This document shows, piece after piece, positions 26,181 to 59,599 of a stretch of DNA of 64,000 bases. Position 1 is the first letter of the stretch. Each line of letters begins with the position of its first letter. The stretch lies in assembly GCA_003971905.1 (NCBI GenBank), contig RSEE01000009.1, positions 1-64,000 of the forward strand, read 5' to 3'. Position numbers and translations under genes: made by a program. Under the pieces are notes generated by a model. The model was not told where the DNA came from and did not search any database. It was given only the letters and a program-made list of their open reading frames with translations. Origin of the DNA: Moniliella sp. 'wahieum'. Its lineage: Eukaryota.

Positions 26181-26874
26181 GCCCAGACCCGCCCCAGGCA
26201 AGGTGCCCCTCGGCATGCATATGCCGGGACTAGACGGGAGGTACGGATGTGCGAGTTGATTTGTGTAAATGGATTACTACTTTCGTTTGGGACGTGTATA
26301 CCAGGAGTGCGTGCCAAGTGGTTGGCTATGCATTGATAGAACATGCGTCACAGAGCGAGAACGGTGCATTGGTCCAGGGTGCCAAAACTGTACCAGACGG
26401 CCGCCGGTTACGCGGATGCGAGCACACGCCCCATTCGGTCCTCGATCCTGGGGTGCTGCAGGCAAAGCGGCCTGATGCGGTGAGCATTCTCCGCTCTGCC
26501 TCCTCCCGTCGTCTCCACGGTGTCTCCCATCTGCCCGACACGGTTGCCAGTAACCGCTTCCACCTTCACCTGGCCAGGACCCGGCAGGACGTTGGGCGCC
26601 GAGGAAAGTAGTTGAGGTGACCGGTGAGGATCGCGCCGCTGCCAAATCAATGCGTCGACGCTTTCTAATGTTGCAGCGGAACTTGTCCTGCAGTGCAGAC
26701 TGCAGTCGGCGCGGCCCGGGGGCCACACCGCGGCACAGGGCGAGTAAAGCGCGGTGGCAGGAGGCCACTGATTTGAAATCAGCCCGTCTTCCCGCTCGTC
26801 CTGGCCAGTGGGTCGCTGGGGCGGGACGGTGGTGGCGCCTGGCGTGTCTGTCTTTCCACCACCGCCTGGCCACC

Positions 26875-27564
26875 ATGTACACCAACCTCCGTCGTCTGAG
26901 CACCCTTGGTGACCTCATCAAGGCCAACCCTTGGGTTCACCGCAAGCTCCAGCCCTTGGCCCGCTGGTACGTCGACAAGATGGGCTACCGCAAGCTCGGG
27001 CTCAAGTTTGACGATCTGCTGATCGAGGAGAGCGAGGTGATGCAGAAGGTATGTTGGACCCTCTTCCACCCCAGCCATGTTGGCTCGCAGTTGTTGTCCA
27101 CCCCCGCGGGTTGCAGCACAGTGTACAGGCGTGCGAACAGAGCAGCTGGACTACCGGCGGCCTGGATCCCCCCCCCCCCTCCTGCCGGCCTGGATAGCGC
27201 GTTGCCTGCCGAATCTACCCGAAGGGATGTGTGGGGGGCATGGGGGCAACCCCAGGCCTGGCCCTATTGTGGAGATAGGACGCGGAAGCCAGGGTGTCTG
27301 GGAATCGGAAGCGGATGGGAACTAACCTTGTCTGTTACTCCTTTCGCGCAGGCCATTGCCCGTCTCTCGCCTCGTGAGCAGCAGGACCGCATCTGGCGCA
27401 TCCGTCGCGCGGTGCACCAGGACATGCTCCACCGCCCTCTTCCTAAGAGCGAGTGGACGAAGGCGGAAGAGGATGCGCGCTACCTGACGCCATTTGTCCA
27501 GCAGGTTGCTTCCGAGCTGGCGGAGCGTGCGGCATATGACAATGCCACCATCAAGAAGCCCTAA
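26875..27564 (+). CDS. QCR7: Cytochrome bc1 complex subunit 7; exons 26875-27048 and 27352-27564
   Basis: GYRKLGLKFDDLLIEESEVMQK|AIARLSPRE..DRIWRIRRA..LPKSEWTKAEEDARYLTP. Intron GTATGT...ACTAAC...GCAG. Confidence 0.95.
   Translation: MYTNLRRLSTLGDLIKANPWVHRKLQPLARWYVDKMGYRKLGLKFDDLLIEESEVMQKVCWTLFHPSHVGSQLLSTPAGCSTVYRRANRAAGLPAAWIPPPPPAGLDSALPAESTRRDVWGAWGQPQAWPYCGDRTRKPGCLGIGSGWELTLSVTPFAQAIARLSPREQQDRIWRIRRAVHQDMLHRPLPKSEWTKAEEDARYLTPFVQQVASELAERAAYDNATIKKP
27079..27311 (+). ncRNA. Candidate structured intronic RNA (possibly H/ACA-like snoRNA) in the QCR7 intron
   Basis: Several complementary stems and an ANANNA box (AGAGCA, 27139-27144). No terminal ACA box found. Confidence 0.3.
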
Positions 27565-28557: not shown

Positions 28558-31500
28558 ATGTCGTTCTTTGGCTTCGACACGACCCTCCCGCGCGACCGGG
28601 CCGGGGGCCGCCCGGTGCCGCCCACGGCGAGCGTCCGCTCGCCAGCGACCGCACCTTCGACCCCACTGCCTCCGCCGCGCCCGACGACGACGACGACTTG
28701 GATGAGATCCGCGCCCACATGGGCAACAAGGAAGACATGGCCGTCTACACCTGGGGCGCAGAGGACTACGACGGTCTGGGTGACCAGCTGGATGAAGAGG
28801 GAGATGCCTTCAACGACGACACCTTTGGCGGTGGCGTGGTCGGTACGTGATGCCCACCCACCCTTGACCACCGCGTGCTAACCCCTCTCTTGCCAGGCAA
28901 CGACTTTGACTTTGGCAATCCGCCTAGTCTGGCCAAGCCCGCGCCTCTTCCCGCGTGGGGTGCCAAGCAGACCCCGTCCAAGCCGTCCAAGTTCTCCTCG
29001 GACTTGGCCGACTTTTTGACGGACAAGCCTCGCAGTTCGTCCCGCGGTGGTACGCCCCTTGCCACCAAGCCCGCCAAGTCGGTCGAGGAAATTGAGCGCG
29101 AGATGCGTGCCGCCTCCTTGTCCGCCACGGCACCGGCACCGGCTCCGGTTCCAGCTCCCGGTCCTGCGACGCACGCGCTCACGATGGAGGAGGTGGAGGC
29201 GCAGATGCGGCAACAGCGTGCTTCCGCCCCCCGCCCGGCCCTGGTCCGATCCCGGTACCCGGCGGTGGGGTGCCGCCGCCGGTATGTACGCTGCTCCGAT
29301 GCCCTCGATGCCGACGGCTCGGGTGCCTGCCCCCCTGCTTCCCGGCACGCCAGGTACTCCCTCGGGTGCGCCTGTCACGCCGGCTGCAGTGCCGGTTCAA
29401 GCCAATGCCGGGGTGCCCCTCCTGGCGCAGATTATGCAGCAGGAGGCGCAGATGCGGGACGAGCGCGCTCGATCCGCTCCAGCTGCCGCCCCGGCTCCCG
29501 CTACGCCCACGAGCCACCCTGCTGGGATGGCCCCTGTCCAGGGGCCTGTCCAGGGGGAGAGCCAAGCCATGCATTTTGCTCGTATGAAGGCGCTACTCGA
29601 CTCCATGCCGGCCACGGTCCAAGCGGCCATTCTGCGTCTCCCGCCTCCGATCCAGTTTGAGGAGTTGGAGTTTATCGCGATGACCTTCCCGCCGCTGGCA
29701 GCGCTTCGTACCACCGACCTATCCAACCCGGAAATGGCCTCGGCAGCACAGCACATGGAGGCTTCTGCCTTGCACGCGCTCCACCTGCATGCGCAGCCGA
29801 AGGTCATGGCGTGGATTGCGCAGCAATCCCGCGCCCAACGCGCCGAGGCCAAGCGGGCGGCCATGAGCAAGTACAATGGGTTGATGAGCAAATCGGACAA
29901 ACAGTTTATTACGCGGATTCAGGTGAGCCAGCTGGTCACCTCGGACCCCTACACGGACGACTTTTACGCTCACATTTACTTTACTCTGCGTGGCCGTAGT
30001 GGCATGAATGCGCCGCTGCTGCCTTCGACTGAAAGTGTCACCACATCGGTTGGGGAGCGGGAGCAAGGGGCGCTGGACCGGCGTGGACGCAAGCAACAGT
30101 CTCGCCTCTCTCGTCGCGAGACGGCCATTCTGCGCATGCAACAGCAAGTCGAGCGCATTGTTCGCAACCGGATCGAACGGTCGCAAAAGTCAGCGTCCGG
30201 GGCCGCGTTGGAAGGTGCGCTAGGCAAGCTGAGCGCCAGCTCAACGAAGGGCATGCGTCAAACCCTTTCCCTCCCCGACTCGGCACCAGCGGCCTCGGGT
30301 CCGACGGCGGCCGACTTGGCTGCTCACGCGGCTGTTCGCACGGCTCTGGCCAACGATGTGGGCCTGGGCGAGGGGACGGGAGTAACGAAGCGGGATCCGC
30401 TCACGCGGCGGGAAGCGTTGGCGATTATTGAAACGTTGTACGACACGGTGCTCGCCATTGAACAACTGCGTCGCGATGGCGCGACGGCCGCTACGGAGCC
30501 CACCCGCCCGAAGGAGAGGAACTGGTACCGAAAGCGCAGGAGGAACGACGGGAGGAGGAGCGTGTGGCCTTGACGTCCCAGCTGTGGAAGGAGCTGCGTG
30601 TGTGGACCACTGGACATCTCCAACCCCCACCCCTTTGTGTCGATTATGGACAGTCTCAAGGGCCAGCGGCTGGTGCCAAGGGCAATGCGGCTGTTGGGCA
30701 ATGACCAGCAGCTAACGACGATGACCATGATTGTCGCCTCGTTTGACCAGCTCAATGTGGTTCGGGAAGCACATGTGCTGGAGGAGGAGGGTGCTCCGGC
30801 TGGCTTGCGCGAATCGGTTTGGGAACAGACGGAAGCGTTTGCCAACACGATCATTCCGTTTATGCTGCACCTTGTGACGGTGCAACCGCTCAAGTACGTG
30901 GCGGGCATGCTGGCCATCTTCTCGAGCGCAACGATGTTGTCCGGGTCGCGCGCTCCCGCCCAGGTGTGCTGTTCTTTACCATTTCCTATCGCGGGCCGAG
31001 GCGTTGCGCCAGCTGGGTGCCAATGCGCCTCCCGACAGGCCGTGCGCCGTCCGGCAGGATGTGGCTTCCTGGGTGCATTACTTGGCCAGCTCTTCCACCG
31101 TATCTCGCAGCCGGGCGTGCTGCCGAGTCTGTTCCCCTCGACGCGCGCACGTGCGCTGCTGCCGTTTGGGCCGGGCTACTACATCTCGGGTGCGTTTGGC
31201 GCAGCGCCTCTGCCGGCGAGCGGGGCCGAGGGGGTGGAGAGGGGCCGGTACCGCAACATTGACCATGAAGACGAGCCGGTGTGGCGGTTCATGGCGGCGT
31301 TGGCGGTGGCGTGTACGATGGAGCAGCAGCAGGTGCTGGTGGCCGGGCTGCGGGAGAAGATTCTGGAGAACGTGGCGAGTGCCAAGGAGTGGGCGGTGCA
31401 ACGGCGGCGTGCGCTCCAGACGCTGCGCCCGACGGCGGACGTGGATGCGGAGCTGGCGGCGGTGGCGGCGTCGGGCCAGGACGGGCCGGAGGCGCGATCC

Positions 31501-31558
31501 GCAACGTCAACCTGCTGCTGCACGCGCTCAACTGGATGCGACGCAGATCACCATCTGA
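28558..31558 (+). CDS. PAT1: Decapping activator Pat1; intron 28843-28896, frameshifted
   Basis: MSFFGFDTTLP, LDEEGDAFNDDTFG, KYNGLMSKSDKQFITRIQVSQLVTSDPYTDDFY, VWRFMAALAV..MEQQQVLVAGLREKILENV; ends LDATQITI*. Confidence 0.93.
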
Positions 31559-31850
31559 GGGCGGGTGGGAATGCTACATTTATTCTTGGATGCGGTGGGG
31601 TGGGGGTGATGCTAATGCTAGTAGCAAGGGTGGAATAGCCAGCAATCGGCAGCGCCGCATCTCTGCACGTGCTCGCCGGCCAGGTCAGGTGACTGGCGAC
31701 TGGCGAACTGGCGACAGGCGACGCGGGGGGCGGAAGCGGAAGCCCCCGCACCCCCATTCCGCGGCGCGGTCCCTTCCGCCTGGTCAGTGCGGCGACGGAA
31801 GGCGGCGAAAGTGGCCAGCTTTGCGCGGCTCGGCGGCGGGCGGCGCTGGC

Positions 31851-35481: not shown

Positions 35482-36419
35482 AAGGAAGCATGCATGTGCG
35501 CGCCTCGACGCCAAAGGCACCGAGGCGAAAAGGGGAAAAAAGTGAGAGTGCCCCGCCCAACCCACCAGGGGTGGCACCAGGGCCTGTTTGCCCGCCCATT
35601 TACGGGGCAGCAAACAAAGGGTGACGGTAAAGAGTAAGCCCCGTCGTGTTACCGCTACGCGGCGACCGCATAACTGTATGAAGATGACCAACAAGCGGGA
35701 GTCAGCACCAATTTCGTCTCGCTTGTGTCGCCACCACCCCAGGCACAGAGCAGGACCCTCCTGAGCAGGCGCAGGGCTCGTGTCTTCGCTCACCTGCTCC
35801 CCAAACCAACAGGAGCTACCCCAGCCCCCAACGCCCAGGGCAGTGCCCTCCAAGCAACCACGAACATGAACGTCCATCATCAGATCCACCCCATGGATGG
35901 GCAGAGGGTGAGCGCACCATGCCTCGGTCCCCATGATAGAGTTACAGAGTACCTGCCCGCAAGGGCATCTCAACCGCGCGCTTTCCGCTGCCGGTGCGCT
36001 TCCTCGTACCCATCCAAGAGACAGCCTAGGACAGCCACGTCCTCACGTGGAGCCCAAGAGGATGCAAGCAAAGCGACAGAGGACATGGGTCGCACCCTGG
36101 TGCCCCTCCTGTGTGGGGGGGCAGCCAGACGTCACCGCACCGTCCGGGGACTTTCCCAACAGCGACTCAGCCACCGGAAGCAGCGAGGGGGGGCTAGTGC
36201 GGTCCTTTGGCCGTCACCCTTTGGTGTGCACCGCGTGCGTGGGCAGGCCCGGCAGCCCAGCAGGCCGCCAGACCCACGAGAAGGGTTTGGTGGAAAAGAA
36301 GAAACGCCCCCCAGCGGCAACGCAGGAAAAAATACACGGCACAGCACAAACCCTGAGCGGAACGGCGTTGCGCATATTCCTCCTCAGCTCTCCTCCACTG
36401 TCGCGCAAATTCATCACCG
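35482..36419 (+). mobile_element. ~930-bp dispersed repeat, copy 1 (probable non-autonomous element or TE fragment)
   Basis: Closely matches the reverse complement of 58643-59599 (for example cctcgacgccaaaggcaccgaggcgaaaaggggaaaaaagtgaga and ggcgttgcgcatattcctcctcagct). The ORF track shows the same peptides on opposite strands. No transposase, RT, TIR or TSD recognised. Confidence 0.7.
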
Positions 36420-38703
36420 GTCACCACGAAGAGTGATGCATGGTAGCAGCACGACAGCAGCCGAGGGCGGGGAGGCACATACGCGGCACGGGGGCAGCCC
36501 CCACAACACAACTGTACACTTCCGCTTCGATGTACATAATGGTAACGCTGGCTGGGGGAAAGAAAAGACATGCCGCCTGAGGGAGAGCACGGGGCCAGGC
36601 ACATTGAAAGCCAAAGGAACATCTCTCTTTGGCGTTTGCGGTATTCCATCCCCTGGAGCGACCCATTTTTCGTTGAAAGCGCGGGGGCCAAAACAATGAC
36701 ACTCATAAAAGGCCTATATGTGCATGAGACCACATCCATCCAACTTCTCCCCAACACCCTTAATTTATCTGGTTGGGGGAAGAATAAGAAATGCAGTAGG
36801 GGGGGTGGCTGGAGGCCAGACGTATGCACTACCGAGGGGTGGCACCAACAGGTGCAACAGTTACGAGAATAGGAATAGATGCGGATCTCAGCCGAGGGAC
36901 TCGGGTAGAAAGGAAGTAAACTTTTCGAGCTATTAGAGGTGCATCAGGGGGTACATGACGATCCCGCAAGACCTGCTCGGCTCTGTAGCGGAATAAAGAG
37001 CTGCATTGCTTTTGGAATGGTGCAAGAATGTCTCAAAGACTATCAGGGACCCCCTCAAAAATCGTGCTTCCCTGAAGCCATGAAATCTGAGGGGTACTGT
37101 GCCACATACACTGTAAACTAGATCCTTGCTCCCCTGGAAGGAAGCTACTAGGTATACTGAAGAATCTCACTAATCTCGGATCTCATTGGAGATGATTCAA
37201 AGTTCAACGGTGAACGTTGAGTGTTGAGTACAACGTTTAACACGTTCAACGCTCATCGCTCACACATGTTTGCCACGCTCGTTCACATTCACTCGTGGTA
37301 CATCCAAAGAAGCGAATGGGGAAAGCGGTCAGATCTCAGAGGGTTCTGACCTGCCGGGAACACTATTGACTTCATACATTTTGTGGGTGGGGCCCAGATG
37401 TCAACAAACACCGGCTGTGCGATACTGAAGGGTAACAAGTAATAGCACTGTGGGGCACTATAAAGCGTGCCTCTTATGTCTCGGCTTAGGCATTATGTTT
37501 TGTAAATGTGCTATGGATGCAGTTGTCTCATTAATAGTAGGATTTACATGTTATGGTTCAACGTGTTCAACGTTCATTGCGTTCAAGTATATTTGCGCTT
37601 TCGTTAATAGAAGGTGAGAAAACAATGATTACTGATGAAACAAGGCAAGGAAAGAGGAGAGAGGGGTAGTTACCGGCGTGAAGCTTGAAGAAGGCTAGGA
37701 GAGGAGAAAAGTGATATCTGAAATTTGATAGAGGAGCGCAACGATCTGTCCAGAGATGTTAGGTGTTTCATTGCATGAACGTTGTGGGTGCTGAGGAGTT
37801 CTGAGTAGTATAATACGCTAGTACTGGTTTGAGTGTATTAGGTCTGAGTACCTGAGTACTCGTCGAGTACTATTAGTACTACTGGGACCGTCTGGTATAC
37901 GGTTGAGCAAGAGCCACCGTCCCTATAAAACACCACCACGGGGTGTGCAACACCTTTTGTCCGATGTACATGCCCGGTTTTAGTACCACACCACACGTTC
38001 CATCATGCATCCCCCGATCACTCCATCACTTCAGAGCGCCAGCAGGCAAAACGTGGGTCTCGTGGCCATCACCCTTGCTCTGACAGGCAAGGGTGGAGGA
38101 TGGGTCTATAGCAGGATGTAGTTGGGGCTGCATCGAGCATATATCGAGTGCATCAGAGCATATGTATGTGACAAGTTGAGACCCCATCTACGAATATTCC
38201 CGTCCCAAGCAATTTAATGCGTCGTACTGACTTTAATGACATGACCAATTCTTGACAGAGTCCCGTGGTGCTTGTGATGCATCATGATGCATGATGCATG
38301 ATGCGTGTAGGATGCGGCAAGTGGCCTAGTTCGGGCTGCTTGTCAGACACACCAGCTCTATAAGAGCCGAAGTTAAATTAGTAACCGGTGATGTAGGCGC
38401 ATGACGTGTGACTGCTGCCCCCAAACCTTTAGAACTATTGCTACTCCGTCCCTTTCTTATAAGCTGATCTGCGTCTCCTTGCCTCTGTTTGGCGCCCCCT
38501 CCATCCCTTCAACCACCCTCCCCTCCCGTCCTTCTACCTCTACACCACCGGTTGGTGCTCGAGAGCAGGCTCTCACTTCCTTTTTCCTCATCCCCTACCC
38601 CCATCAACATCCAGCCGGTCTGGAACTTTTCCCCCTGCGTGCACATCGCCCCATCACACCCTCCATCTTGCCTGAAGCCTATACGCCGGTCGTATTCGTC
38701 GCC

Positions 38704-40029
38704 ATGCACCCTCGTCCCCTGGTAGGTCTCCTCGTTCTCTGCCTCCTCGCCCACCTATGCGGAAATGTCGGCGCACTGCCCATCCATGCCCCTGCCACCA
38801 ACATTCCCGCACAAGCAAACAACGTGAACCCACCAGCCAGTACGGCTGCCGCTTCTGCCCAGCTCTACCCCCGTGACTTTGCTCAATCCCAAGCTGTTTC
38901 CAAGCCCCTTCCCCAGGACGGATGGGAAGATATCAACGGTCCGGAAGAGTTCAGTGGTGTCAGCATAAAATGCCCTGCGTGGGCTACGGGTGGGTACAGT
39001 GGACCTAAGGTCAAAACCATGGAAATCGCCACCACATGCATGCAGTCCCCACCCACCGCGTCTACCATGGTGATAACATCCACGCCTACCTCCACCACAC
39101 CTGCCCAATCATGGAGCTCTTCCAGTAGCACTGCGTCCTCGAGTAGTGCCTCGCCTTCTCCTTCCTCAACAGGCACTGCCTGGCCCCACGATGGGTACAG
39201 CAAAGGAGAGTTGCGGACTGATCTGAGCAATATCATGAGTTGGGCAAACGCCAAGGAACAGCTCCAGGACAGCTTATTCAATGAGACTGTTGATGCTGTC
39301 TGGAGTGCAGCGGCACGGTACTGGAACGAAATCCCGGCGCGTGCGGCCGCTCGTTTTATCCTCGCTGAGATTCAGGTCGAGTCTGATTTTAACAGCAAGA
39401 AGGCGGATGGCCCTGCGTTGGGCCTTCTCCAGGTCACACCCGGGAACGACACTCGCGGGCTAACTTTGTTCAAGAATTATGCTAATGTCCAGCAGCATAC
39501 GCTCTCTTGGCAAGTGGCGAACGTCAACGAGGGAGAGGGTTCGGGCGCCTTGACGGACTACCAGTCATCGCAGCCGTTGAACCTGGGCAAGTTGAGCAAC
39601 AACGACCTCTTCCGTCCGTGGATCAATGTGCACGTTGCTTGCTGGATACAGTCCAATCTTGCCCGCTCAGGAAGCAATGACCCGAGCAATTGGCAAGCGA
39701 TCGCTCGCGCCTCCCACACCTGGATCCATGCCTGGTTTCCGTTCCTAAGGGACCGAGGCCAGGTGAAGCTGAACAAGTACTTACAGGCTACTCAGCTGCC
39801 CTACACTTTCCAGACCGCCCTTGGCTCCTGGGCAGCTGGGCCAGCCAAGGATGGTCCTGGGGCTTACAAGCAAAATGGCGATGATCGGTCAGTAGAGTAC
39901 ATCAACTCGGTCCTCGCTGGCGTCAAAGTGCTGTTTGGCAAACCGAACATGACCACCACCTTTTTCGACAAGTGGAATGTGCATCCGGGATTGTTAGACT
40001 ACAACATTCACTGGTTCCCTTTTTGGTGA
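38704..40029 (+). CDS. Secreted lysozyme-like (SLT/GH23-type) protein with S/T-rich linker, 441 aa, intronless
   Basis: Signal peptide MHPRPLVGLLVLCLLAHLCGNVGA and an S/T linker. SLT-like motifs in order: AEIQVESDF, ALGLLQV, DLFRPWINV, ALGSWAAGP, EYINSV. Confidence 0.7.
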   Translation: MHPRPLVGLLVLCLLAHLCGNVGALPIHAPATNIPAQANNVNPPASTAAASAQLYPRDFAQSQAVSKPLPQDGWEDINGPEEFSGVSIKCPAWATGGYSGPKVKTMEIATTCMQSPPTASTMVITSTPTSTTPAQSWSSSSSTASSSSASPSPSSTGTAWPHDGYSKGELRTDLSNIMSWANAKEQLQDSLFNETVDAVWSAAARYWNEIPARAAARFILAEIQVESDFNSKKADGPALGLLQVTPGNDTRGLTLFKNYANVQQHTLSWQVANVNEGEGSGALTDYQSSQPLNLGKLSNNDLFRPWINVHVACWIQSNLARSGSNDPSNWQAIARASHTWIHAWFPFLRDRGQVKLNKYLQATQLPYTFQTALGSWAAGPAKDGPGAYKQNGDDRSVEYINSVLAGVKVLFGKPNMTTTFFDKWNVHPGLLDYNIHWFPFW

Positions 40030-41920: not shown

Positions 41921-43449
41921 ATGTCCGCCGCCGCACTGCGTGAAACATGCCCCTCCGCCGCTGCCTTCTTACCCCCCGAGCGTACCAAGCTTGCCCCGGC
42001 TGCGTCTTGGGCCCGCTCATCTGCCATTATTCCACGGGCGAGCAGGGCGAAGCAGATCCTTCCAAGCAGGCGGCGATACTGTCTGACGCGGCGGTACGTG
42101 TCCACTCAATCCTCAAGCCCAAGACGAACGAGTGGGCGGACAGGCAGGAATCGGACGAGAACTGGTATGTCTCTTCAGACATGCTTAAAGGGGCTTCCAT
42201 ACCACCGACGGGATATGAAAGCAAGTACACGTCTGAGCCCATTACTTCAATCGGCGCACCAGCCTGGAACGAGACACTGCCCCGCCCGGATGCACTCTCT
42301 GAGCAAGGCGTACCCCTCGCTGATCTATCTCGCGCCGAGAGAGCGACGGGACGGAAGAGGATGTTGACGGTGCCACGGATGATTTAGAGTTTCTCCGAAT
42401 GACCGACCCAGATCATGTATTGTGCCTGCCCCACGAGCTTGAGCTGGCCGCGATGAACAAGGTGCTGCGTGTGCAGATGCATTACGATTGGTATGAGCTC
42501 CGCCCTCGGATTCAAGCCCAATCTGATGCCCGCGCCGCGCTCGTGGCCGAAGGATGCCTCTCTCCCCGTGTAGCGGCTGAAGAGAAGGCGCTGGCACAGG
42601 CAGGGGTCGATGTGGTGGAGGCACGCGACATTACCATGATGGCTGAATATGCGGATGAAATCCTGCTGTACCTGGGAGAATGCGAGAAGCGGACGATGCC
42701 CAATGCTAACTACCTTGAGCACCAATGTGAGGTGGATGCGGCGGCACGGAGCAAAGTAATAGACTGGCTTGTCTTGGTTCATGATCGCTTTCGCCTCGTC
42801 CCGAAACGTTGTTCAATGCGACCAATATTTTGGACCGCTTCCTTTCTCTGCGGGTTGTGGCACTGGCCAAGCTTCAGTTGCTTGCAATAACCTCCCTCAT
42901 GATCGCGTCCAAGTTTGAAGAGGTGCTGCCTCCACCTCTGGACGATCTGGTGTACGTGTGTGCGGGCGTGCAACCGGGAGAGGTCATCAAGGGTGAGCAA
43001 CTCATCCTCGAGGCTTTGAACTTTGACGTTTCGAGATACACTACACCCTACCCCTTCCTTCGCCGCATCAGCAAGGCAGATGAGTACGATGCCCATACCC
43101 GAACCTTGGCCAAGTTTTTTTTGAGCTTGCCTTGGTGGATGAGCGCTTCCTTCGGGTCCGCCCACGAACCATCGCGGCCATGTCTATGTTCCTAGCGCGC
43201 CGAATTCTGGTTGAGTGGGACGAGGTTTGGGACAATGCGTTCGTCTACTATTCTGGTCATGTTCAAGAACAATTGGTCCCTGCTGCTAATTTGATTCTTG
43301 AACGGCTTGTCCAGCCCGAAGTGTGCAACCTGCACGTGTATCACAAGTACAGTCGCCGTGTTTTCCTTGGGGCCGCTCCATTTGCTCGTGACTGGGCTTG
43401 CCACAATTTTCACCCCGCTTTTACAAATGCTACCAACGCCATCCTTTAG
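41921..43449 (+). CDS. B-type cyclin (divergent); start uncertain, frameshifted
   Basis: MMAEYADEILLYL..E.RTMPNANYLEHQ, RSKVIDWLVLVHDRFRL, NILDRFLS.RVV.LAKLQL..I.SL.IASKFEE, PYPFLRRISKADEYD.HTRTLAKF, FVYYSG. Confidence 0.88.
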
Positions 43450-45562: not shown

Positions 45563-47453
45563 GGTAACGAGATGGGACGGGCAGGATTGGGGCAGGAGGG
45601 CGACTAGTGAGGGTGGGAGGGAGGAGTGGACGGGGTAGTGGAAGTGAAATGGAGGGAGAAGAGGATGGCGATGGTGGTGTACTGTGGGTGATGTTGGGGG
45701 TGACAAGGTGTTACTGAGCGAGAAGATCAACATGTTCAACCTGAAGCTTGAACCGCCATTGCGCCGAGAGGGCACCACGCCCCGAGGCGATCGTCCATCA
45801 TCGATCACCGATCGCACGCGCGAGCATGGGGAAGAAGAAGCAGAAGGGCAGTGTCCGGGCGTGGGAGCGAGAAACAGTGGGATGTTTCAGTTCGTCAGTT
45901 CGGGATTGCCACAGGGGCGGTGCCTCCTGATGCATGATTCATGACCGGTGACCCCACTGTGCGAGCGACCTAGGCTGACATTCGAATGGCACGGGGCCAG
46001 TTTAAAAAGTACCCAGTTGTCTACGCCTCGCGCGTCGTTCCATGGCTAAGCGTCAGCGCGCCAGCGCGTCAGCGTCAGTTCCCACACCCCGGCGGCTACC
46101 GTCACCGCGTCACTGCGGTTGAAGTCAACGGTCGACGACAACCTAGCGCCACGAGCGGTAGCGAGCGCAACCGTCCACTCCCGATTCTTCCGTCGTCTGT
46201 TCGGTTTAACGCTGAGGCGCTGAGGCTGAGTACGCTGAGGCTGAGTACTGAACCATTGAACAGCTGGGTCACGGATGCCATGGTCAAGCGCAGAGGCCTC
46301 TCAATACCACCGCATCTCAATGGCTACCGGGCTTAGTCTTTCTTCTCGGATGGCCTCCGGCCTGAAGAGCCGCTCCAGCGCGCATTGCTGCCTTGTGCTT
46401 ACTGCGCAAAGTATAACCAGCATGGCGCATCGGTGCGCTGGCAAATACTATCCCCAGCCCCAGCAGCATTATTTACCACGCGGGGACACTTGCGACATGT
46501 GATGGGTGATGATCGTGTTGAACGTGTTGAACGTTGATTAATGATTCAATTGGCTACCCCGCGTCCAAAATGACATCCGTGTGACTTGGTTGCGTGCGAC
46601 ATGTGGCATGGCGAGGTTGGAGAGGGATAGAGGTTGGACGCACACTCAGAACTCGACGTCTCAGATCGTAACCCTCTTAGTTCCACTAAATGCCATAGGA
46701 ATGTCTACCAATCTATTCCCCCCACTAGCCCCAGCATTTCCTTCTCCATTGGGAAAGAAAACCATCGTAAATTGCAGAAATGCCGGTCTTGTCTGAACTC
46801 GGAATGTGCGAAGTGGCAATTTTAGATGCCTCCCGCCTCCAACCACGCCGCATCCTCAGGGCCTCATCGACTTCATCGACCTCATAGTTGATGGCTCAGG
46901 CTGAGCAATCGCTGATTCATGATTCTTGAACGTTGAACCTTGAACGTCTTGTACTTCCATCATGCATCAGCTTCCAGCTTCAGATCTCAGAGAGAACTCA
47001 GAGTATAAGTACTCTGGTTGTTCACCTGCTGCACCACAACATCATTATATTACCACACTCTCATCATGATGCATGTGCAACATGCATCAAGGCAAAAAAG
47101 GTCTCTCAGGGACCCATCCGTCAGAAGAAGAACAAAAGCGCCTTCAAGCTTCAATCCCAGGCTATAGTTCACGCCAGAAGCACCGTAGGCACCCAACATG
47201 CATACGGAGCGAGGACTACGAATGAAATCTGTTCTACTCAAATTGCGTTGGCCGGACCACCACACTCACTGCAAGCATACAATCTCTACTTCGCGACCTA
47301 GTATATTTGCTTGCGGTACATGTTCCAACATCTACCGTGGGGCGTTTTCCCACCGCCACCGCGACCGATTCCAGTGTGTGCTGAGAGAGCCGTTGGAAGC
47401 GGAAGATGAGATTGCATTGGCTCGAGAAGGATGGTCAAAGGATGCTCAAAGGG

Positions 47454-50400
47454 TCAGAGTGGGTCTGGGCTGGGGAGGATTGGGGCGTGTGCAGTGGAGA
47501 AGAGAAGTTTGTCCGACGAGGAACCATTCATCAAGCTGAGTGGCTGCTCGACTTCGATGCTGGAAGACCATGAAGCTCCGAGAGAGTGGAGGGCCTCGCG
47601 AGGCTCGGGTGGAGGCTTTGACAGGGCAATGGGGATTGGCGAAGGAGTCAAGTCGTGCACGGGAAGAGGAAGGGGAAGGGGAACGGCGGAAGGCGTAGTC
47701 GCCTGGGTAGGTGTGGCTGATGGATGCAATGCTGGGGAGGGGAAGGGTGCGAGAGGTGAGGAGGGGATGTATTTCTTTCAGTCCGGCGCTGAGCGGATCA
47801 AGGTGAGGAGGGTCAGTCGGGGGGTCAGATAGAGGGTCGGACCAAACGTTGCCCTCCCACGAGGAAGTGCTATCGTTTCTTTCATGCCCAGGAGATGATT
47901 TTGACGCGACCAGCGGGGGAGCTTCCAAGGACGCACCCCTAATGCTTGATGATGGGCGGGCATCCCAAGGACTGTCCATCTCGGCAGAGCCTGGCTGATC
48001 ACCGAACAGCCACCCTCTTACTGGCAGACCAAAGGGCACGCACCTGCCTCTTCCCTGCCGCCGCAGGGTCCCAACCCTGCTCGTCTGAGTGGGAAGGGGC
48101 CGGATGGGGGTTCCCGTTGTCGGACGACCCATTGGCATGGGAATGGGACAAGATGTGTGAGAGCCTGTGGTTTTTGGGCTTGGTTTGGTACGGACGATAA
48201 GTCAACCCTGCGTATTCGTCCTTCGCCCCCTGCGTTAGGGGATCTTTGACCGCTCCTGTACCCCCTGAGCCTGGGTCCGGTTGACTTTGCGCAGCCGCCT
48301 CCATCCTTTGCTCGAGCCGCTTGCGTCGAGCGTCCCGCTGGGAGGCGGCCTCTGCCTGAGCAGCCTGCTCCAAATCGATGTAGGCATTGAGGTCTTCATC
48401 TGAGCGACGAAACAAAGCAGGCCAAAATCGTACATCTTTGCCGTCGGGCATCACCACGCCCATATCCGTCTTGGGCCGCTTAATGTCATCCAACTGGGGA
48501 TCGTACTGTGGATTTGCAAATACGGCCTTGGTGGTGGGCGAAAGAAGATCGTCCCACACACTCTTGACCCCAGGAAACTGGTGACGGAGGCGGAGTCGCT
48601 CAGCCTCCGAGTTAAAGGGAAGGTGCCCGTGGTGCACTCGTGAAGCGCTCGTTGCAACTCAACGAGCCAGCCAGTGGAAAACTCAAATCGTTCTGGGAAT
48701 TGACGGTGAATTTGATAAATGCAATCGAGGAACTGATGAAAGACAGGGGAGATCTCTTTGAGGTGCGTGACCGACTCTTGGTCGTGGGGCCCCCGTAAGT
48801 TGGCGGCCACGGATTTGGTAAATCCCCATAGCGCTGAGGCGGCATTGGCCGGCTCAAACCCTCCATTGCGCGAGTCCGAGTCCGGCTCGGGCTCAGGCGA
48901 GGGTTGGTACTTGTCGTCAAAGAAGTGGTGTGCGACAAGTGGCCAGTTCGATCCAAAAACCGATGGCCAAACGCAACAAAGTCTTTCTCAATCAAGACTG
49001 CAAATCCCTGGAAGGTACGAAAGTAGGGGTCCAAGCATACCTGGGCCGCTGCCGAAAGCTGAGACGTGCGATCCCATCCATCAGAGCAATGGATGAGGAC
49101 ATGGGCGCACTCCACATGCACTGTTCGTACAATCTTGCCTACCCCTTCAAGCAGAGTAGAAATGTGCTTCAGCCCCCGAGCGCTTGACCTGCCCTGGATC
49201 AAGGAACGGTAGGGAATTTTTAGATTCGGCACCAAAGCCAGGAGCAACATCAGCGTCGCTCAAAGCTTCAGTAATTGCCTTAAGCGAGTCCCGCATGACA
49301 TGGATATTGTCGATCCCAAGGAAGACCTTGCGGCAGCCAGGGTAATAATCCATCGTCTCGCTCCCGGCTCCCTTGGCATGATTGGCATAGGCATTGGTGG
49401 TAGGCCGGGCATCGATAATCACATTGTTGGTCCTGGCTCCGTAAATGTGCTGAGTGCCTAACGACGTAGGTGCCTCTGACGAGTCAATTGCGTCAAATCC
49501 CCCCAAGGACGAGTCAGCAGTGTGTGTTTCGTCCCCCGTAAAAGGAGTTGTCCCGTTGGGAGGCGCACCAACATGTGTTCCCCCAGCAAAAAGATGAGAC
49601 GAAAAGATGGCATCGACCAACTTTTCATCCTGGACACTACGACTGTACCGCAGTCCTACCAATGGCTGGGACGAACGGGTAATGGTGGCCAAGTGGGCCC
49701 AGTGGAGGTAGGTCAGGGCAGGGAGCCGCGACTTGGACCGGAACTTGGCGCCATGCTGCAGAGTCGTATCGCTGATCCTTGAGGGAACGACCAACAACGA
49801 GGGGTATGTTGGGCAGAACTGGTGAATCGAACCAAGGGATTAGAAGATCTCATTAAGAAAGGTGGAAGACAACGTGTCCGGCCGGATTGGGAGCCAAGCT
49901 TACAGTATGGGTCTCATTGAGCGTCGTCGTCCTCCATGCACGGGTACGGGTCCAGACACCTTGTCGTTCGAATTCCCTCTTGGGATCGTAGATGAGCCAT
50001 CCGGGTGGAGAGAGACTGGTTTCAGAACCATCGGTGGGAGCAGCAGATGGAGGTGATGAAAGCGGGAGCAAATTCAAATTCGGTTTCTCCTTTGTTAGAA
50101 ACGCGTCCGGATGAAAGCAGCAAGTTGTTCGATGTGCTTGAGAACTGTGCAGGAGCGCAAGGATCGGTACACGTCGTGGCAGACCTGGTCGCTGCCAAAG
50201 TAGAGTGTGAGCGACTCAAAGTCCTTGAGTTGAATCCAGAGGGGGAATGCTCGGAACTGGAAGGATGGAGCAAGAGTGGCGGCATAGGCATGCGGGAGAG
50301 GGACGCTGGGCAGGCGGGTGACATGGCCAATCAGGTGCACGGAAAATGCAATCGTCTCGCCTGGGCGGGCGCCGAAGATACGCTGACGCGGTTCGTCGGC

Positions 50401-50598
50401 AGTGTGCGGGACACTAAGCGCAGGGGATTTTGTAGGAGTCACGTCGGCGCTGGGAGGCGTGCCAGAATCAGAGCTGGAGGCGGGGTCGAGCTGGAGGATA
50501 ACGTGATGGGCTGTGAGGGCAAGTGAGGCTGCGCCATACACGTACCGGCGCTGGACCAGAACGCGGGGGACACCAGGTAGGACAGGCTGGCGGTCCAT
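47454..50598 (-). CDS. YMR1: Myotubularin phosphoinositide 3-phosphatase, frameshifted; intron at about 49819-49902
   Basis: Catalytic motif HCSDGWDRT; GWLIYDPKREFERQG; FRSKSRLPALTYLHW; ITRSSQPLVG; IIDARPTTNA; LGIDNIHVMRDSL; SPVFHQFLDC.YQI.RQFPERFEF. Confidence 0.93.
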
Positions 50599-50793
50599 GG
50601 AGCGCGGCCGTGTAGGAACGGGCAAGTGAGGTGGTGGTGGTGGCGGTGGTGGCGGTGATGGTGGTGGGCGGTGGCGGTGGTGGCTTGGAGAAATGGAGGC
50701 GATGGGGGCGGCTTGCGCCAGGATGGTTATCGCTGAGCGCTGATAGCTGGCCGATGGCAGGATGGATGATGCATGATGGAGGCCGATGATCGA

Positions 50794-50820
50794 TGACGCG
50801 TGACGCGTGACGCGTGACGC
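50794..50820. repeat. (TGACGCG)n array containing three ACGCGT sites upstream of myotubularin
   Basis: tgacgcgtgacgcgtgacgcgtgacgc seen directly. Confidence 0.8.
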
Positions 50821-50960
50821 TGGGAGCGATCTATGCCAGGCCATTGCAGCTCTGCCCACACTGCCCCTGTGCGCAGCGCAGCGCTCCTCCATCCGCCTGA
50901 TGTCCATCGGCCCGTTGGCTTCCATGGCCTCCATGGGTTGCGGTGCAAGCGCCGCTCCGT

Positions 50961-52030
50961 CTACGCCGTGGCCGCGTCCAGGCCTAGCTGGCGCAACGGC
51001 AAGGTGCGCTCCAGCGCCCGTTTACCCGGCAAGGCAGTGAGCGTCTGGCGCTTGGTGAGCATGCGCTTGCTGTGTGTCGGCTGCTGTTCGTGCCGCATAA
51101 TCTTGTGAAGCCAGGCGACATTTTTGGTGCTCTGCCGCTCGATCAGCTCGCTGCTTGACCAACGCACGCGATAGGTCGAACGCCTCAATCGACCGAGATG
51201 CGACGAGGCTGTGGTGCGCAGTCCGCCCCATCTGCCGCGCCTTGCGCACCTCTCCACGCGGGCGCGGCGAGTTGGACTGGTACCACTCCCATTGCAGCTT
51301 GTGCTCGTCCACCGTGGCAGGGAAGCGGGAGCCAATGTCCGTCTCGATATTTAGCGTCCCTATTAGACGCTTCACACCGGACCCAACCAAACTTCCCGCT
51401 TCTCTGCCGTCCTGTCGTGGCGCGATTGCGGAAGCCCGAGCCCGGTCGCCTCGTCTCGGTGCGGGCAGGAATGGCGGGCATATATGCATAAAGAGTCGCG
51501 GAGCACGCTGTCCAGCTGACTTCAAGGTGGGGAGGAACAAAGAGGAAGGAAGCGGTATAAGGTACGGGGAGAGAGGACGCACCCCCTTGGGAAAAGGCCG
51601 TTTGGCGCCTTTGTCCTTCCTTTTGGCCTCCTTGGTCGCCTTCTCCACCTTATCTCCTCCTTGATTTCATCCTGGACTGCCTGCATTTCCGAAAACGTAT
51701 CCTGGGCAACAATCTCCTTGTCGTCACTGACTCCCGCCTCTTGCGCTGCCGCCTCGGCTTGAGCCTCTCCTCTCTACTCCTTTTCCTCCGACACAACCTC
51801 GATTTCGCCCCTCCACCTTCAGAGCAGCCGTTTCGGCTCCCTTAAGTTTCTGCAGATTGTTCTCCGTGTGGCACAGGAAAGCAATGCGAGAAGAAGCGAC
51901 CGAGACCAAGTCGTGGGTTCCGACCACAAAACCGGGTTCGTCACTCCCATCCTGTTCAGCTTAACGTGGCCACCAAGTATGAGCAAACGGGCCTGGTAGA
52001 CCGAAGTGGCCAAGCATCTATTTAACCTCC
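50961..52030 (-). CDS. NAM9: Mitochondrial ribosomal protein uS4m (Nam9), C-terminal half; N-terminus unreadable
   Basis: S4 domain RCLATSVYQARLLILGGHVKLN...HDLVSV; Nam9-like C-terminal motifs FLFVPPHLEVSWTACSA and KLQWEWY, in shifted frames. Confidence 0.7.
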
Positions 52031-55541: not shown

Positions 55542-56780
55542 ATGCCTGCTAACGGTGTTTCTTTCCACAACCACAAGCTGCCCGAGGGCCACTTCCTCTT
55601 CACCTCGACGTCTCCATCCACCCTCAGTCCCTGCGCGCATCGCCTAACCCCCCCCCTTTCGTCTCCCCCAGCGAGTTTGGTGAGAGGCCACCGACAAGAT
55701 CTGTGACCAAGTGTCCGATTGCCATCCTCGATGCCTGCTGCCAGGACCCCAACTCCAAGGTTGCCTGCGAGACGGCGACCAAGACGGGCATGGTCATGGT
55801 TGGCGAGATCACGACCAAGGCGGGATGACTACCAGAAGGTCATTCGCGACACGATCAAGGAGATTGGGTACGACGACAGTGCCAAGGGCTTCGACTACAA
55901 GACGTGCAATGTGCTGGTTGCCATTGAGCAGCAGAGCCCGACATTGCCCAGGGCCTCGACCACGGCTCGCTGGAGGACCACGGCGCTGGTGACCAAGGCA
56001 TCATGTTTGGCTATGCGACGGATGAGACGCCTGAGCTTATGCCCCTCACACCTCACCCTCGCCCACAAGCTGAACCGGGCCCTGACCGTCGCTCGCAAGA
56101 CGGGCGCGCTTCCCTGGCTCCGCCCCGACACCAAGACGCAGGTGACTGTGCAGTACAAGAAGGATGGCGGTGCGGTGGTGCCCGTTCGCGTCGACACGGT
56201 TGTCGTCTCGACCCAGCACTCGGACGACGTGACGACGGAGCACCTGCGTGCCGAGATTCTGGAGAAGATCATCAAGGAAGTCATCCCTGCCCACCTGATT
56301 GACGAGCAGACCATCTACCACATCCAGCCTTCGGGCCGGTTCGTGATTGGCGGCCCTCAGGGCGACGCTGGTCTGACGGGGCGCAAGATCATCGTTGACA
56401 CCTACGGCGGCTGGGGCGCGCACGGCGGCGGTGCCTTCTCGGGCAAGGACTTCTCCAAGGTGGACCGTTCGGCGGCCTACACGGCGCGGTGGGTGGCCAA
56501 GTCGCTGGTTGCCGCTGGCCTGGCGCGTCGCGCGCTGGTTCAGCTGTCGTACGCGATTGGGGTTGCAGAGCCGCTGTCGGTGTTTGTCGAGTCGTACGGC
56601 ACGTCGTCCAAGTCGGATGCCGAGCTGGTTGACATTGTGCGCAAAAACTTTAACCTCAAGCCCGGTGTGATTGTGCACCACCTCGAGCTGCAAAAGCCTA
56701 TTTACCGTTCCACCGCTTCGTACGGCCACTTTGGGCGCCCCGAGTTCACCTGGGAGCAGCCCAAGAAACTGACGCTGTAA
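55542..56780 (+). CDS. SAM2: S-adenosylmethionine synthetase; intron at about 55607-55671, 5' part heavily frameshifted
   Basis: [91 protein letters not shown]. Confidence 0.97.
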
Positions 56781-58642: not shown

Positions 58643-59599
58643 CGGTGATGGGTTTTGCGCGAGGGTGGAGGCCGGAGAAGAGCTGAGGAGGAATATGCGC
58701 AACGCCGTTCCGCTCGGGGTTTGTGCTGTGCCGTGTATTTTTTACTGCGTTGCCGCTGGGGGCCGTTTCTTTCTTTCCACCAAACCCTTCTCGTGGGTCT
58801 GGCGGCCTGCTGGGCTGCCGGGCCTGCCCACGCACGCGGTGCACACCAAAGGGTGACGGCCAAAGGACCGCACTAGCAGCCCCCCTCGCCGCTTCCGGTG
58901 GCTGAGTCGCTGTTGGGAAAGTCCCGGACGGTGCGGTGACGTCTGGCTGCCCTCCCACGCAGGAGGGGCACCAGGGTGCGACCCATGTCCTCTGTCGCTT
59001 TGCTTGCATCCTCTTGGGCTCCACGTGAGGACGTGGCTGTCCTAGGCTGTCTCTTGGATGGGTACGAGGAAGCGCACCGGCAGCGGAAAGCGCGCGGTTG
59101 AGATGCCCTTGCGGGCAGGTACTCTGTAACTCTCATCATGGGGACCGAAGCATGGTGCGCTCACCCTCTGCCCATCCATGGGATGGATCTGATGATGGAC
59201 TTTCATGTTCGTGGTTGCTTGGAGGGCACTCCTCTGGGTGTTAGGGGCTGGGGTAGCTCCTGTTGGTTTGGGGCGCAGGTGAGCGAAGACACGAGCCCTG
59301 CGCCTGCAGGAAGAGCTGGTCCTGCTCTGTGCCTGGGGTGGTGGCGAGCAAAGCGAGATGAAATGGGTGGTGCTGATCCCGCTTGTTGGTCATCTTCATA
59401 CAGTTATGCGGTCGCCGCGTAGCGGTAACACGACGGGGCTTACTCTTGACCGTCACCCTTTGTTGCTGTCCCGTAAATGGGCGGGCAAACAGGCCCTGGT
59501 GCCACCCCTGGTGGGTTGGGCGCTGGGGCAATCTCACTTTTTTCCCCTTTTCGCCTCGGTGCCTTTGGCGTCGAGGTGCGCACGCATGCATCTATCCTT
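58643..59599 (-). mobile_element. ~930-bp dispersed repeat, copy 2 (inverted relative to copy 1)
   Basis: The reverse complement matches 35482-36419 with scattered substitutions and small indels. Confidence 0.7.

Follow-up and report, generated by a model that had tools for sequence, protein, structure and literature searches.

A predicted secreted GH23/SLT-like protein of Moniliella sp. 'wahieum', a candidate peptidoglycan-cleaving enzyme from a fungal family of probable vertical descent

Does an intronless gene of the fungus Moniliella sp. 'wahieum' encode a secreted enzyme of the lytic transglycosylase type and, if so, what would this enzyme cut and where did the gene come from? The gene occupies positions 38704..40029 of the forward strand of contig RSEE01000009.1 (assembly GCA_003971905.1), within a stretch of 64,000 nucleotides (positions 1 to 64,000) that was analyzed as a whole and is referred to here as the window; the encoded protein is called the window protein. 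An earlier note on this DNA had described the product as a divergent relative of glycoside hydrolase family 23 (GH23) carrying the motifs of lytic transglycosylases (SLT domain), and had raised the possibility of horizontal or transposable-element-assisted acquisition. Our analysis points to a very divergent GH23-type enzyme that belongs to a family found across the Ustilaginomycotina, with bacterial peptidoglycan as its likeliest substrate, and argues against a recent acquisition.

The open reading frame (ORF) was found to be uninterrupted and intronless, as had been claimed: it runs from the ATG at 38704 to the TGA at 40027-40029, with 441 codons before the stop and no internal stop codon, and no intron is needed, as relatives align over the whole domain without frame breaks. 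The C-terminal part of the protein, residues 165-441 (277 aa; 39196..40026, forward strand), makes up the GH23/SLT-like catalytic domain, as supported by an AlphaFold2 model and structure matches. A search with residues 170-441 returned 12 relatives, with E-values ranging from 1e-103 to 1.3e-44 and identities of 38-60%. All full-length relatives carry the domain at their C-terminus, preceded by an N-terminal region whose length varies. On comparison of these sequences, the gene is not a chance ORF: the best E-value of a relative against the domain is 1e-103, and among 82 distinct sequences, conservation reaches at least 97% at 38 positions of the domain.

The five motifs quoted in the earlier note were all present, in the order stated: ILAEIQVESDF, ALGLLQV (residues 238-244), DLFRPWINVHVACW (residues 301-314), ALGSWAAGP (residues 372-380), and EYINSV (residues 398-403). 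The first of these contains Glu226-Ser227 (39379..39384, forward strand), proposed to be the general acid with its accompanying Ser. The pair forms the C-terminal end of helix 212-227 and aligns to the ES of Slt70 and MltC; the codon of the putative catalytic Glu, 39379-39381, is indeed GAG. Glu226 was kept in 73 of the 74 relatives and Ser227 in all 74. The lone exception, P0036, has Asp in place of the Glu and matches the domain profile as two separated pieces. The second motif belongs to the beta-hairpin signature G240-L-L-Q243-V-T245-P246 (39421..39441, forward strand), which aligns to GLMQI of Slt70 and in which G240 (73/73), Q243 (71/73), and a Ser or Thr at position 245, two residues after the Gln (Q+2; 73/73), were conserved. 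Between these two motifs (residues 228-239; 39385-39420), the six residues SGGRLD, which follow ESDF(x4) in all other aligned members, are missing from the window protein and from P0002-P0004, its three closest relatives; in these proteins, the Glu-to-hairpin spacing therefore equals that of Slt70 to within one residue (14 residues from Glu to Gly in the window protein versus 15 in Slt70).

Further along the domain, W306, H310, W314, and N318 were invariant in relatives. They lie in the helix L302-FRPWINVHVACWIQSNLA-R321 (39607..39666, forward strand; model helix H141-157), the probable equivalent of the SLT 'L.DP..N' helix. The segment G374-SWAAG-P380 (39823..39843, forward strand) forms a family-specific invariant motif, with the consensus GSW[AV]AG[PA] and with G374, W376, A378, and G379 each conserved in 75 of 75 sequences. 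The C-terminal helix, residues 394-411 (39883..39936, forward strand; model helix H230-247), carries the invariant S396 and Y399 (75/75 for the latter), and Y399 aligns, with low confidence, with the Tyr of RGYVKNV in Slt70. The invariant acids E194, D301, D326, and D393 are candidates for a second catalytic acid.

The fold was modeled with AlphaFold2, template-free, for residues 165-441. Three alignments were used in this work: A1 with 13 rows, A2 with 20 rows, on which the domain model was built, and A3, a clean domain alignment. The domain model had a mean predicted local distance difference test score (pLDDT) of 88.9 and a predicted template modeling score (pTM) of 0.90, the pLDDT of the five models ranging from 78.0 to 88.9. 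Glu226, which is model residue 62, ends helix 48-63, and short strands at model residues 70-80 carry G240 and Q243. Two elements define the lysozyme superfamily according to PMC2976769: a central helix with the catalytic Glu at its end, and a hairpin in which Gly and Gln are conserved. Both elements were found in the window protein, in the model as well as in the pattern of conservation, namely E226-S227 at the helix end and the G240/Q243 hairpin.

When the model was aligned with 48,161 representative chains, ranks 1-8 were all GH23 enzymes. Slt was matched with a Z value of 12.0 (149 residues, 3.5 Å) and MltC with 11.8 (139 residues, 2.9 Å), followed by MltF (11.2), a Ralstonia GH23 chitinase (11.2), MltE (11.1), Slt70 (10.2; 143 residues, 2.6 Å), Cj0843 (10.2), and MltD (9.5), whereas salmon g-type lysozyme reached 7.5. 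A second look, at 999 chains, gave lytic transglycosylases or the GH23 chitinase exclusively in rows 1-45, with a top Z of 12.2. In Foldseek searches, MltC, MltE, and Slt headed the PDB list, whose first 13 rows were MltC and MltE (best E-value 2.9e-3), and phage transglycosylases ranked first in BFVD. The large inserts that had been proposed between the motifs were also seen: the superposition on catalytic domains of 150-190 residues takes in about 145 residues out of 277, and the model contains a long loop (260-298) and two extra helices (327-360). Overall, the model and its matches support a lysozyme-like fold closest to GH23/SLT enzymes and thus the description of the protein as a divergent GH23-like enzyme, for which the alignment of the ES and GLLQV motifs provides additional evidence.

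At the sequence level, the connection to known enzymes was made largely through the relatives. Among 24 relatives, Pfam SLT was matched above the cut-off by 8 (21.5-29.3 bits) and below it by 2, and 14 gave nothing at E <= 0.01; at E <= 0.1, it was matched by 12 of the 20 rows of alignment A2. The window protein would thus be a divergent relative of the SLT family by way of its relatives, and not a direct Pfam member. An NCBIfam scan of the window protein identified no family, and searches of PDB sequences with the single sequence or the full-length profile returned only low-complexity matches to the Ser/Thr-rich part. With the domain profile, the single match among solved chains at E <= 10 was a lytic transglycosylase C (9vi7, E 0.25), in which AESDFN aligned with IESSFN and GLLQV with GLMQI. 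A feature search of the ESM Atlas pointed, at 0.93, to clusters from bacteria and phages, including an SLT cluster, which we regard as a lead only.

Comparison of A3 with six SLT domains of E. coli K-12 using hhalign gave a probability of 75% (E 2.5e-5, 62 columns), with VESDFN paired with QESAWNP and GLLQV with GLMQI; against Slt70 alone, the probability was 27-35%. In all hhalign comparisons with the E. coli domains, Glu226-Ser227 paired with the Glu-Ser of 'RQESAWNP', whose Glu we take to be the catalytic Glu478 of mature Slt70. The first two motif equivalences (ES and GLMQ) were therefore confirmed by alignment to Slt70 and MltC. Those proposed for the third motif (L.DP..N) and the fifth (Y...V) agreed at low confidence with a bridge through P0031, a second paralog of Tilletia horrida, in which LLRPWVN aligns to LLDPETN and PPYIRSI to RGYVKNV (hhalign probability 9.7%). 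For the third motif, a competing placement exists: the profile alignment against the six E. coli domains put the SLT 'LLDP' on residues 283-286. This placement was set aside, these residues being in coil in the model. Although both alignments are of low confidence, P305-N308 was preferred, because a helix starts there and because of the P0031 bridge.

The fourth motif was assigned differently from what had been proposed. AYNAG is a motif of family-1 lytic transglycosylases and could be recognized in four of the six domains from E. coli (Slt70, MltD, MltF, and an unnamed 2994k locus); in the window protein, it was thought to have been replaced by SWAAG. P0031 argues otherwise. This protein carries a literal AYNAG at residues 232-236, directly after DPSDW, where other members have a variable helix. 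Its Pfam SLT match, covering profile positions 16-100, spans this AYNAG, and hhalign pairs it with AAYNAG of Slt70. Since the AYNAG of P0031 (as WSAYNAG) shares a column with W330-QAIARA of the window protein, lies within the SLT match, and aligns to Slt70, W330-QAIARA (39691..39711, forward strand) is probably the positional equivalent of AYNAG, with the motif decayed. Among the 14 family rows listed at this column, P0031 was the one with a literal AYNAG. GSWAAG is then probably a separate, family-specific motif and not the AYNAG equivalent, and P0031 appears, from its sequence, to link the fungal family with the SLT domains of bacteria. P0031 is short (312 aa), lacks a helical insert of about 30 residues, and has the longest branch of the tree described below (1.04).

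The explanation that we favor is the following. A signal peptide would direct the protein to secretion, and a stalk would be formed by a disordered region that is rich in Ser, Thr, and Pro and probably carries O-linked glycans. The 277-residue domain would be a very divergent SLT-type GH23 glycan-cleaving enzyme of the lysozyme superfamily, in which Glu226, at the end of the central helix and followed by Ser227, would act as general acid on the beta-1,4 bond between N-acetylated amino sugars, in a cleft presumably lined by the hairpin G240-x-x-Q243-x-T245 and the invariant W306, W314, W376, and Y399. The likeliest substrate would be bacterial peptidoglycan outside the fungal cell, cut in the manner of a muramidase or a lytic transglycosylase, and the enzyme may serve the fungus in competing with bacteria or in scavenging their cell walls. 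To this explanation as a whole, including the secreted and stalked GH23 enzyme, Glu226 as acid, peptidoglycan as substrate, and vertical inheritance, we assign a probability of about 0.5. Its core, a vertically inherited GH23-like enzyme with Glu226 as acid, is considerably firmer and can be regarded as very probable. As to the substrate, the odds for peptidoglycan are about even and those for chitin or chitosan distinctly lower, with the remainder falling to other substrates or to an absence of catalysis.

Several observations weigh against this explanation, with respect both to the assignment of the domain and to its substrate. The window protein itself scored below the Pfam threshold for SLT (PF01464), with 17.0 bits for the whole sequence and 18.7 bits when only the domain was scanned, versus a cut-off of 21.3; a match to Phage_lysozyme2 was also sub-threshold (18.3 versus 28.2 bits), and both matches surround the ES motif, falling on residues 216-280. 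In the fungal family, conservation of AYNAG is lacking. The check by AlphaFold and Foldseek that had been suggested for this domain did rank lytic transglycosylases first, but nothing in the PDB was matched at E <= 0.001, and Z values of about 12 are, according to the aligner's own note, in the range where helical models may match unrelated chains. Moreover, a full-length AlphaFold2 model built on the 13-row A1 had a pLDDT of 47, with parts of the domain below 50; as this model on a shallower alignment was poor, the good domain model depends on the 20-row alignment. The fold matches nevertheless carry weight, because the lists are uniformly GH23 and because the catalytic motif aligns independently in sequence.

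The decayed AYNAG, the score below the Pfam threshold, and the large inserts could also be taken as signs that catalysis was lost and that the domain has become a glycan-binding protein, for example one that masks wall fragments from a host. We consider this improbable, given that Glu226 and Ser227 (73/74 and 74/74), as well as G240 and Q243, were kept across the subphylum and that the only protein with another residue in place of Glu226 is P0036, with its profile match in two pieces.

The other points against our explanation concern the substrate, and bear on the possibility that the same fold and the same catalytic Glu act on chitin or chitosan, as in a GH23-type chitinase used for remodeling of the fungus's own wall (e.g., cell separation) or for attack on other fungi. 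Enzymes acting on peptidoglycan and on chitin cannot be told apart by fold: the Ralstonia sp. A-471 GH23 chitinase was matched as well as the lytic transglycosylases, with Z values of 11.2-11.5 over nearly the whole domain (141-145 residues aligned of 150-160). Moreover, position Q+2 holds Ser or Thr in 73 of 73 relatives, which recalls the residue that positions water in inverting hydrolases; in the GH19 pair Gln118/Ser120, listed in Table 2 of PMC2976769, this residue is the Ser. By analogy, this conservation hints at hydrolysis and not strictly at a lytic transglycosylase reaction. The family is also kept across three classes and whatever the lifestyle of the fungus, Malassezia included, and both T. 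horrida and M. furfur have two copies; this distribution fits a housekeeping function in the wall equally well. Ser/Thr-rich stalks, finally, are common in wall-associated fungal enzymes. Chitin nevertheless remains the less probable substrate and this alternative a tentative one: all sequence-level signals (Pfam SLT, Phage_lysozyme2, and MltC) point to peptidoglycan models, Pfam scans of 20 or 24 relatives reported no chitin-binding module (CBM18, LysM), and fungi already have GH18 chitinases for wall remodeling.

To what family, then, does this putative peptidoglycan-cleaving enzyme belong? An exhaustive phmmer search of 1,835,955,588 representatives identified 43 proteins at E <= 0.001 (24 of them at E <= 1e-30), whose E-values and lengths are consistent with one family; no relative outside the Ustilaginomycotina was found in this search. 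When the A3 profile was run against 4588 candidates, 35 proteins were matched with E-values from 7.6e-123 to 2.9e-40 and none more weakly down to 1e-3, which shows the family, as far as its sequence profile delimits it, to be small and sharply bounded. The named relatives came from 18 species: Ustilago/Mycosarcoma maydis (UMAG_01844), Sporisorium graminicola, S. reilianum, Pseudozyma flocculosa, Violaceomyces palustris, Ceraceosorus guamensis, Tilletia indica, T. controversa, T. horrida, Exobasidium rhododendri, Acaromyces ingoldii, Tilletiaria anomala, Tilletiopsis washingtonensis, Pseudomicrostroma glucosiphilum, Malassezia obtusa, M. psittaci, M. vespertilionis, and M. furfur. A taxonomy check of six of these species placed all of them in the Ustilaginomycotina, in three classes; the other named species presumably belong there as well.

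A maximum-likelihood tree was built from 50 full-domain rows, fragments and 11 near-duplicate rows having been dropped, and was rooted at the midpoint only. It recovered the Ustilaginales (support 100/99), Tilletia (99/93), and Malassezia (100/100), with the deeper forks unresolved. The window protein and three unnamed relatives formed a clade of their own (100/100) on a stem of length 0.75. In 185,579 bacterial and archaeal genomes, none of the 95 candidate pattern-match stretches was confirmed as a relative. The GC content at third codon positions (GC3) of the ORF was 0.64, within the range of 0.63-0.78 of the nine neighboring ORFs compared. Ten metagenome loci with relatives (31-42% identity) had no other gene in common with positions 15-64 kb of the window at E <= 1e-8, at a distance too great to be informative.

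These results bear directly on the proposal of a recent horizontal transfer from bacteria or phages, or of carriage by a transposable element. Such an origin could be suspected from the bacterial nature of the closest solved structures, from the restriction of the relatives to one fungal subphylum, and from the presence of an inverted repeat pair, 95% identical, with one copy 2.3 kb upstream of the ORF and the other 18.6 kb beyond its end. However, the 18 named species, six of them checked, all fall in the Ustilaginomycotina, the clades follow taxonomy, with a bootstrap of at least 99 for each of the Ustilaginales, Tilletia, and Malassezia, no bacterial or archaeal candidate stretch was confirmed, the 43 phmmer matches all fit one family, and the GC3 of the ORF is that of its surroundings. 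Ordinary eukaryotic genes, moreover, lie between the repeats. A recent transfer is therefore very improbable, and the acquisition suggested in the earlier note was not upheld; we conclude that the gene was inherited vertically, within a family that occurs throughout the Ustilaginomycotina.

The surroundings of the gene had also been described as a repeat-flanked island. An inverted repeat pair does flank the locus, and this one pair, with copies of about 915-926 nt, is the sole repeat in the window. The upstream copy (35482..36396) is not part of the gene, and the downstream copy (58674..59599), found in inverted orientation by the repeat search, is 95% identical to it over 931 aligned columns. 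A 277-aa ORF (35866-36699) in the upstream copy had no Pfam match; the element may be a solo long terminal repeat (LTR), some other dispersed repeat, or a segmental duplication. Between the two copies lie genes for a cyclin (41947-43195), a myotubularin-like phosphatase (~47000-51000), and S-adenosylmethionine (SAM) synthetase (55731-56780); because of these genes, the 22 kb between the copies cannot be regarded as a mobile island, and that part of the description did not stand. A PAT1 gene (29284-31638) lies just upstream, outside the repeat interval, and a gene for the 14-kD subunit of cytochrome bc1 (26650-27564) is another neighbor. Several of the neighboring eukaryotic housekeeping genes are split by introns. 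The SAM synthetase of the window showed at most 75% identity to any protein in the collection searched, which therefore contains no close relative of this fungus; Agaricomycetes and Ustilaginomycotina were intermingled among its best matches. Placement of the fungus in the Ustilaginomycotina is suggested by the taxonomic range of the GH23-like family.

Vertical inheritance within the subphylum leaves room for an older event, in which a bacterial or phage lytic transglycosylase entered the ancestor of the Ustilaginomycotina once, then gained a signal peptide, a glycosylated stalk, and inserts, and was kept as an extracellular antibacterial weapon. This scenario is in keeping with the lack of relatives outside the subphylum among 1.84 billion representatives and with a structure that matches bacterial transglycosylases (Z about 12) more closely than it does animal g-type lysozyme (Z 7.5). 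Since identity to any bacterial protein is below 21%, no tree can be rooted with such proteins, and we regard the scenario as rather unlikely, though much less so than a recent transfer. If true, it would provide a eukaryotic enzyme of the lytic transglycosylase type, possibly still yielding 1,6-anhydromuropeptides, and a second class of antibacterial effectors in smut fungi beside GH25.

Secretion of the window protein was predicted from its N-terminal parts. The frame is open further upstream as well, as far as an ATG at 38401, and a start there would yield a protein of 542 aa. In the alignment of relatives, however, the start of P0003 and its hydrophobic stretch align with the Met at 38704 and with LVGLLVLCLLAHL; because the hydrophobic N-terminus thus coincides with the predicted start of P0003, 38704 is likely the translation start. 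The order of parts proposed in the earlier note, a signal peptide, a Ser/Thr-rich stretch, and a C-terminal domain, was recovered. Residues 1-24 (38704..38775, forward strand) form a probable signal peptide, read by eye as MHPRP, the hydrophobic core LVGLLVLCLLAHL, and GNVGA, with Arg4 preceding the core; by the same reading, cleavage would occur after Ala24, with Val at -3 and Ala at -1. Residues 7-18 are helical in the full-length AlphaFold2 model, and similar hydrophobic N-termini were observed in relatives P0003, P0005-7, and P0011-13. The region that follows, residues 25-164 (38776..39195, forward strand), is of low complexity, varies in length and sequence among relatives, and matched no family in the Pfam scan. 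With pLDDT below 50 at residues 19-158 of the full-length model, the N-terminal region is not confidently folded. Its core, residues 114-160 (39043-39183, forward strand), consists of 60% Ser and Thr.

Two short conserved features were noticed in the N-terminal regions of the family. After the signal peptide (residues ~50-65; 38830-38900), the window protein shares a stretch L-x-[AP]-R-[DEA]-[FL] with P0003 and P0005-P0007, followed in some relatives by dibasic KR or RR sites; this stretch may be a propeptide or a processing site. In the Ustilaginales proteins P0008-P0011 and P0013, an extra conserved segment of about 45 residues, starting from VLPHNFVNKVD, was observed, which the window protein does not have. 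In Pfam, this segment had no match above threshold, with PIN_9 as a sub-threshold match only.

Annotation of GH23 type in basidiomycetes, which the earlier note had mentioned, does exist, several orthologs being already named 'Transglycosylase SLT domain-containing protein' in UniRef. As automatic pipelines already label them in this way, the gene is no surprise at the level of annotation. The literature was covered in its main texts, supplements aside, and no functional study of the family was found there, nor any mention of UMAG_01844 or um01844, of GH23 together with Ustilaginomycotina, or of 'transglycosylase SLT' together with Ustilago. In Sporisorium scitamineum, a candidate secreted effector with an IPR008258 'lytic transglycosylase-like' domain is one of seven expressed at all infection stages, according to PMC4246466; we assume that it is orthologous to the family described here. 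GH23 is listed as a bacterial-peptidoglycan family in surveys of fungal carbohydrate-active enzymes (PMC3652786), and an induced GH23 is reported in a rust transcriptome (PMC4559923, which mentions a GH23-annotated transcript of Cronartium ribicola). The window protein can thus be placed as a distinct-clade member of an automatically annotated, experimentally untouched fungal branch of a known kind of enzyme.

The plant and skin surfaces on which smut fungi and their yeast relatives live are densely populated by bacteria. Secreted GH25 lysozymes of this fungal group are described as antimicrobial effectors in PMC7870139, bioRxiv 10.64898/2026.03.27.714703, and PMC12626018. In the text consulted of the U. 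maydis work, two antimicrobial effectors are named, GH25 and Ribo1 (bioRxiv 10.64898/2026.03.27.714703). The terms 'transglycosylase' and 'GH23' do not occur in the available parts of two of these GH25 texts (PMC7870139; bioRxiv 10.64898/2026.03.27.714703), nor does '01844' in that of the bioRxiv text. A second, unrelated cell-wall-cutting enzyme kept across the subphylum would be a candidate for antagonism between fungi and bacteria; if it acted on chitin instead, it would be a candidate for an unrecognized step in fungal wall remodeling. The model species U. maydis carries an ortholog, UMAG_01844, and although the transfer story behind the initial excitement is not supported, the protein is still a reasonable candidate for bench work.

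Among known systems, the family-1 lytic transglycosylases (Slt/Slt70, MltC, MltE, MltF, and MltD) gave the best structure matches, with Z values of 9.5-12.2 over 139-153 residues. The window protein shares with them the Glu-Ser that ends the central helix and the G-L-M/L-Q hairpin, both aligned in sequence, and, with low confidence, a probable L.xP..N helix and the C-terminal Tyr helix. It differs from them in an identity of 12-21% over aligned residues, in a domain of 277 residues versus about 150-190, and in the motifs of its family, in which GSW[AV]AG is invariant and AYNAG is not conserved. At Q+2, the fungal family has Ser or Thr, whereas M, V, I, K, N, and T occur in the six E. coli enzymes. 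Unlike bacterial lytic transglycosylases, moreover, the window protein is eukaryotic, presumably secreted through the endoplasmic reticulum, and provided with a Ser/Thr-rich stalk.

Over almost the whole of its catalytic domain, the Ralstonia sp. A-471 chitinase (GH23; PDB 3w6b and related entries) resembles the window protein, with a root-mean-square deviation (rmsd) of 3.2-3.3 Å, but no match was obtained at the sequence level. Goose-type lysozyme, the animal GH23 hydrolase, also has the Glu helix and a hairpin whose Gly and Gln are three residues apart, as described in PMC2976769; the structure match was weaker, the salmon g-type enzyme aligning with an rmsd of 4.2 Å at the Z value given above. 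Position Q+2 is occupied by Asp97 in goose lysozyme and by Thr245 in the window protein. According to PMC2976769, Asp97 positions water and is only partly conserved in the goose-type family.

The comparison with the GH25 lysozyme effectors, i.e., GH25 of Moesziomyces bullatus ex Albugo and UMAG_02727 of U. maydis, is one of functional analogy only: these are secreted enzymes of a lysozyme family from the same fungal group, reported to act against other microbes, whereas GH25 is a glycoside hydrolase family unrelated to that of the window protein. The closest counterparts remain the UniRef orthologs (U. maydis UMAG_01844 and those of Sporisorium, Tilletia, Tilletiaria, Tilletiopsis, and Pseudozyma). 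Unlike these, the window clade stands apart and is without SGGRLD after ESDF, and, unlike the Ustilaginales members, the window protein is without the extra N-terminal segment; with a domain identity of 33-60%, these orthologs share with it the C-terminal position of the domain and the same invariant residues.

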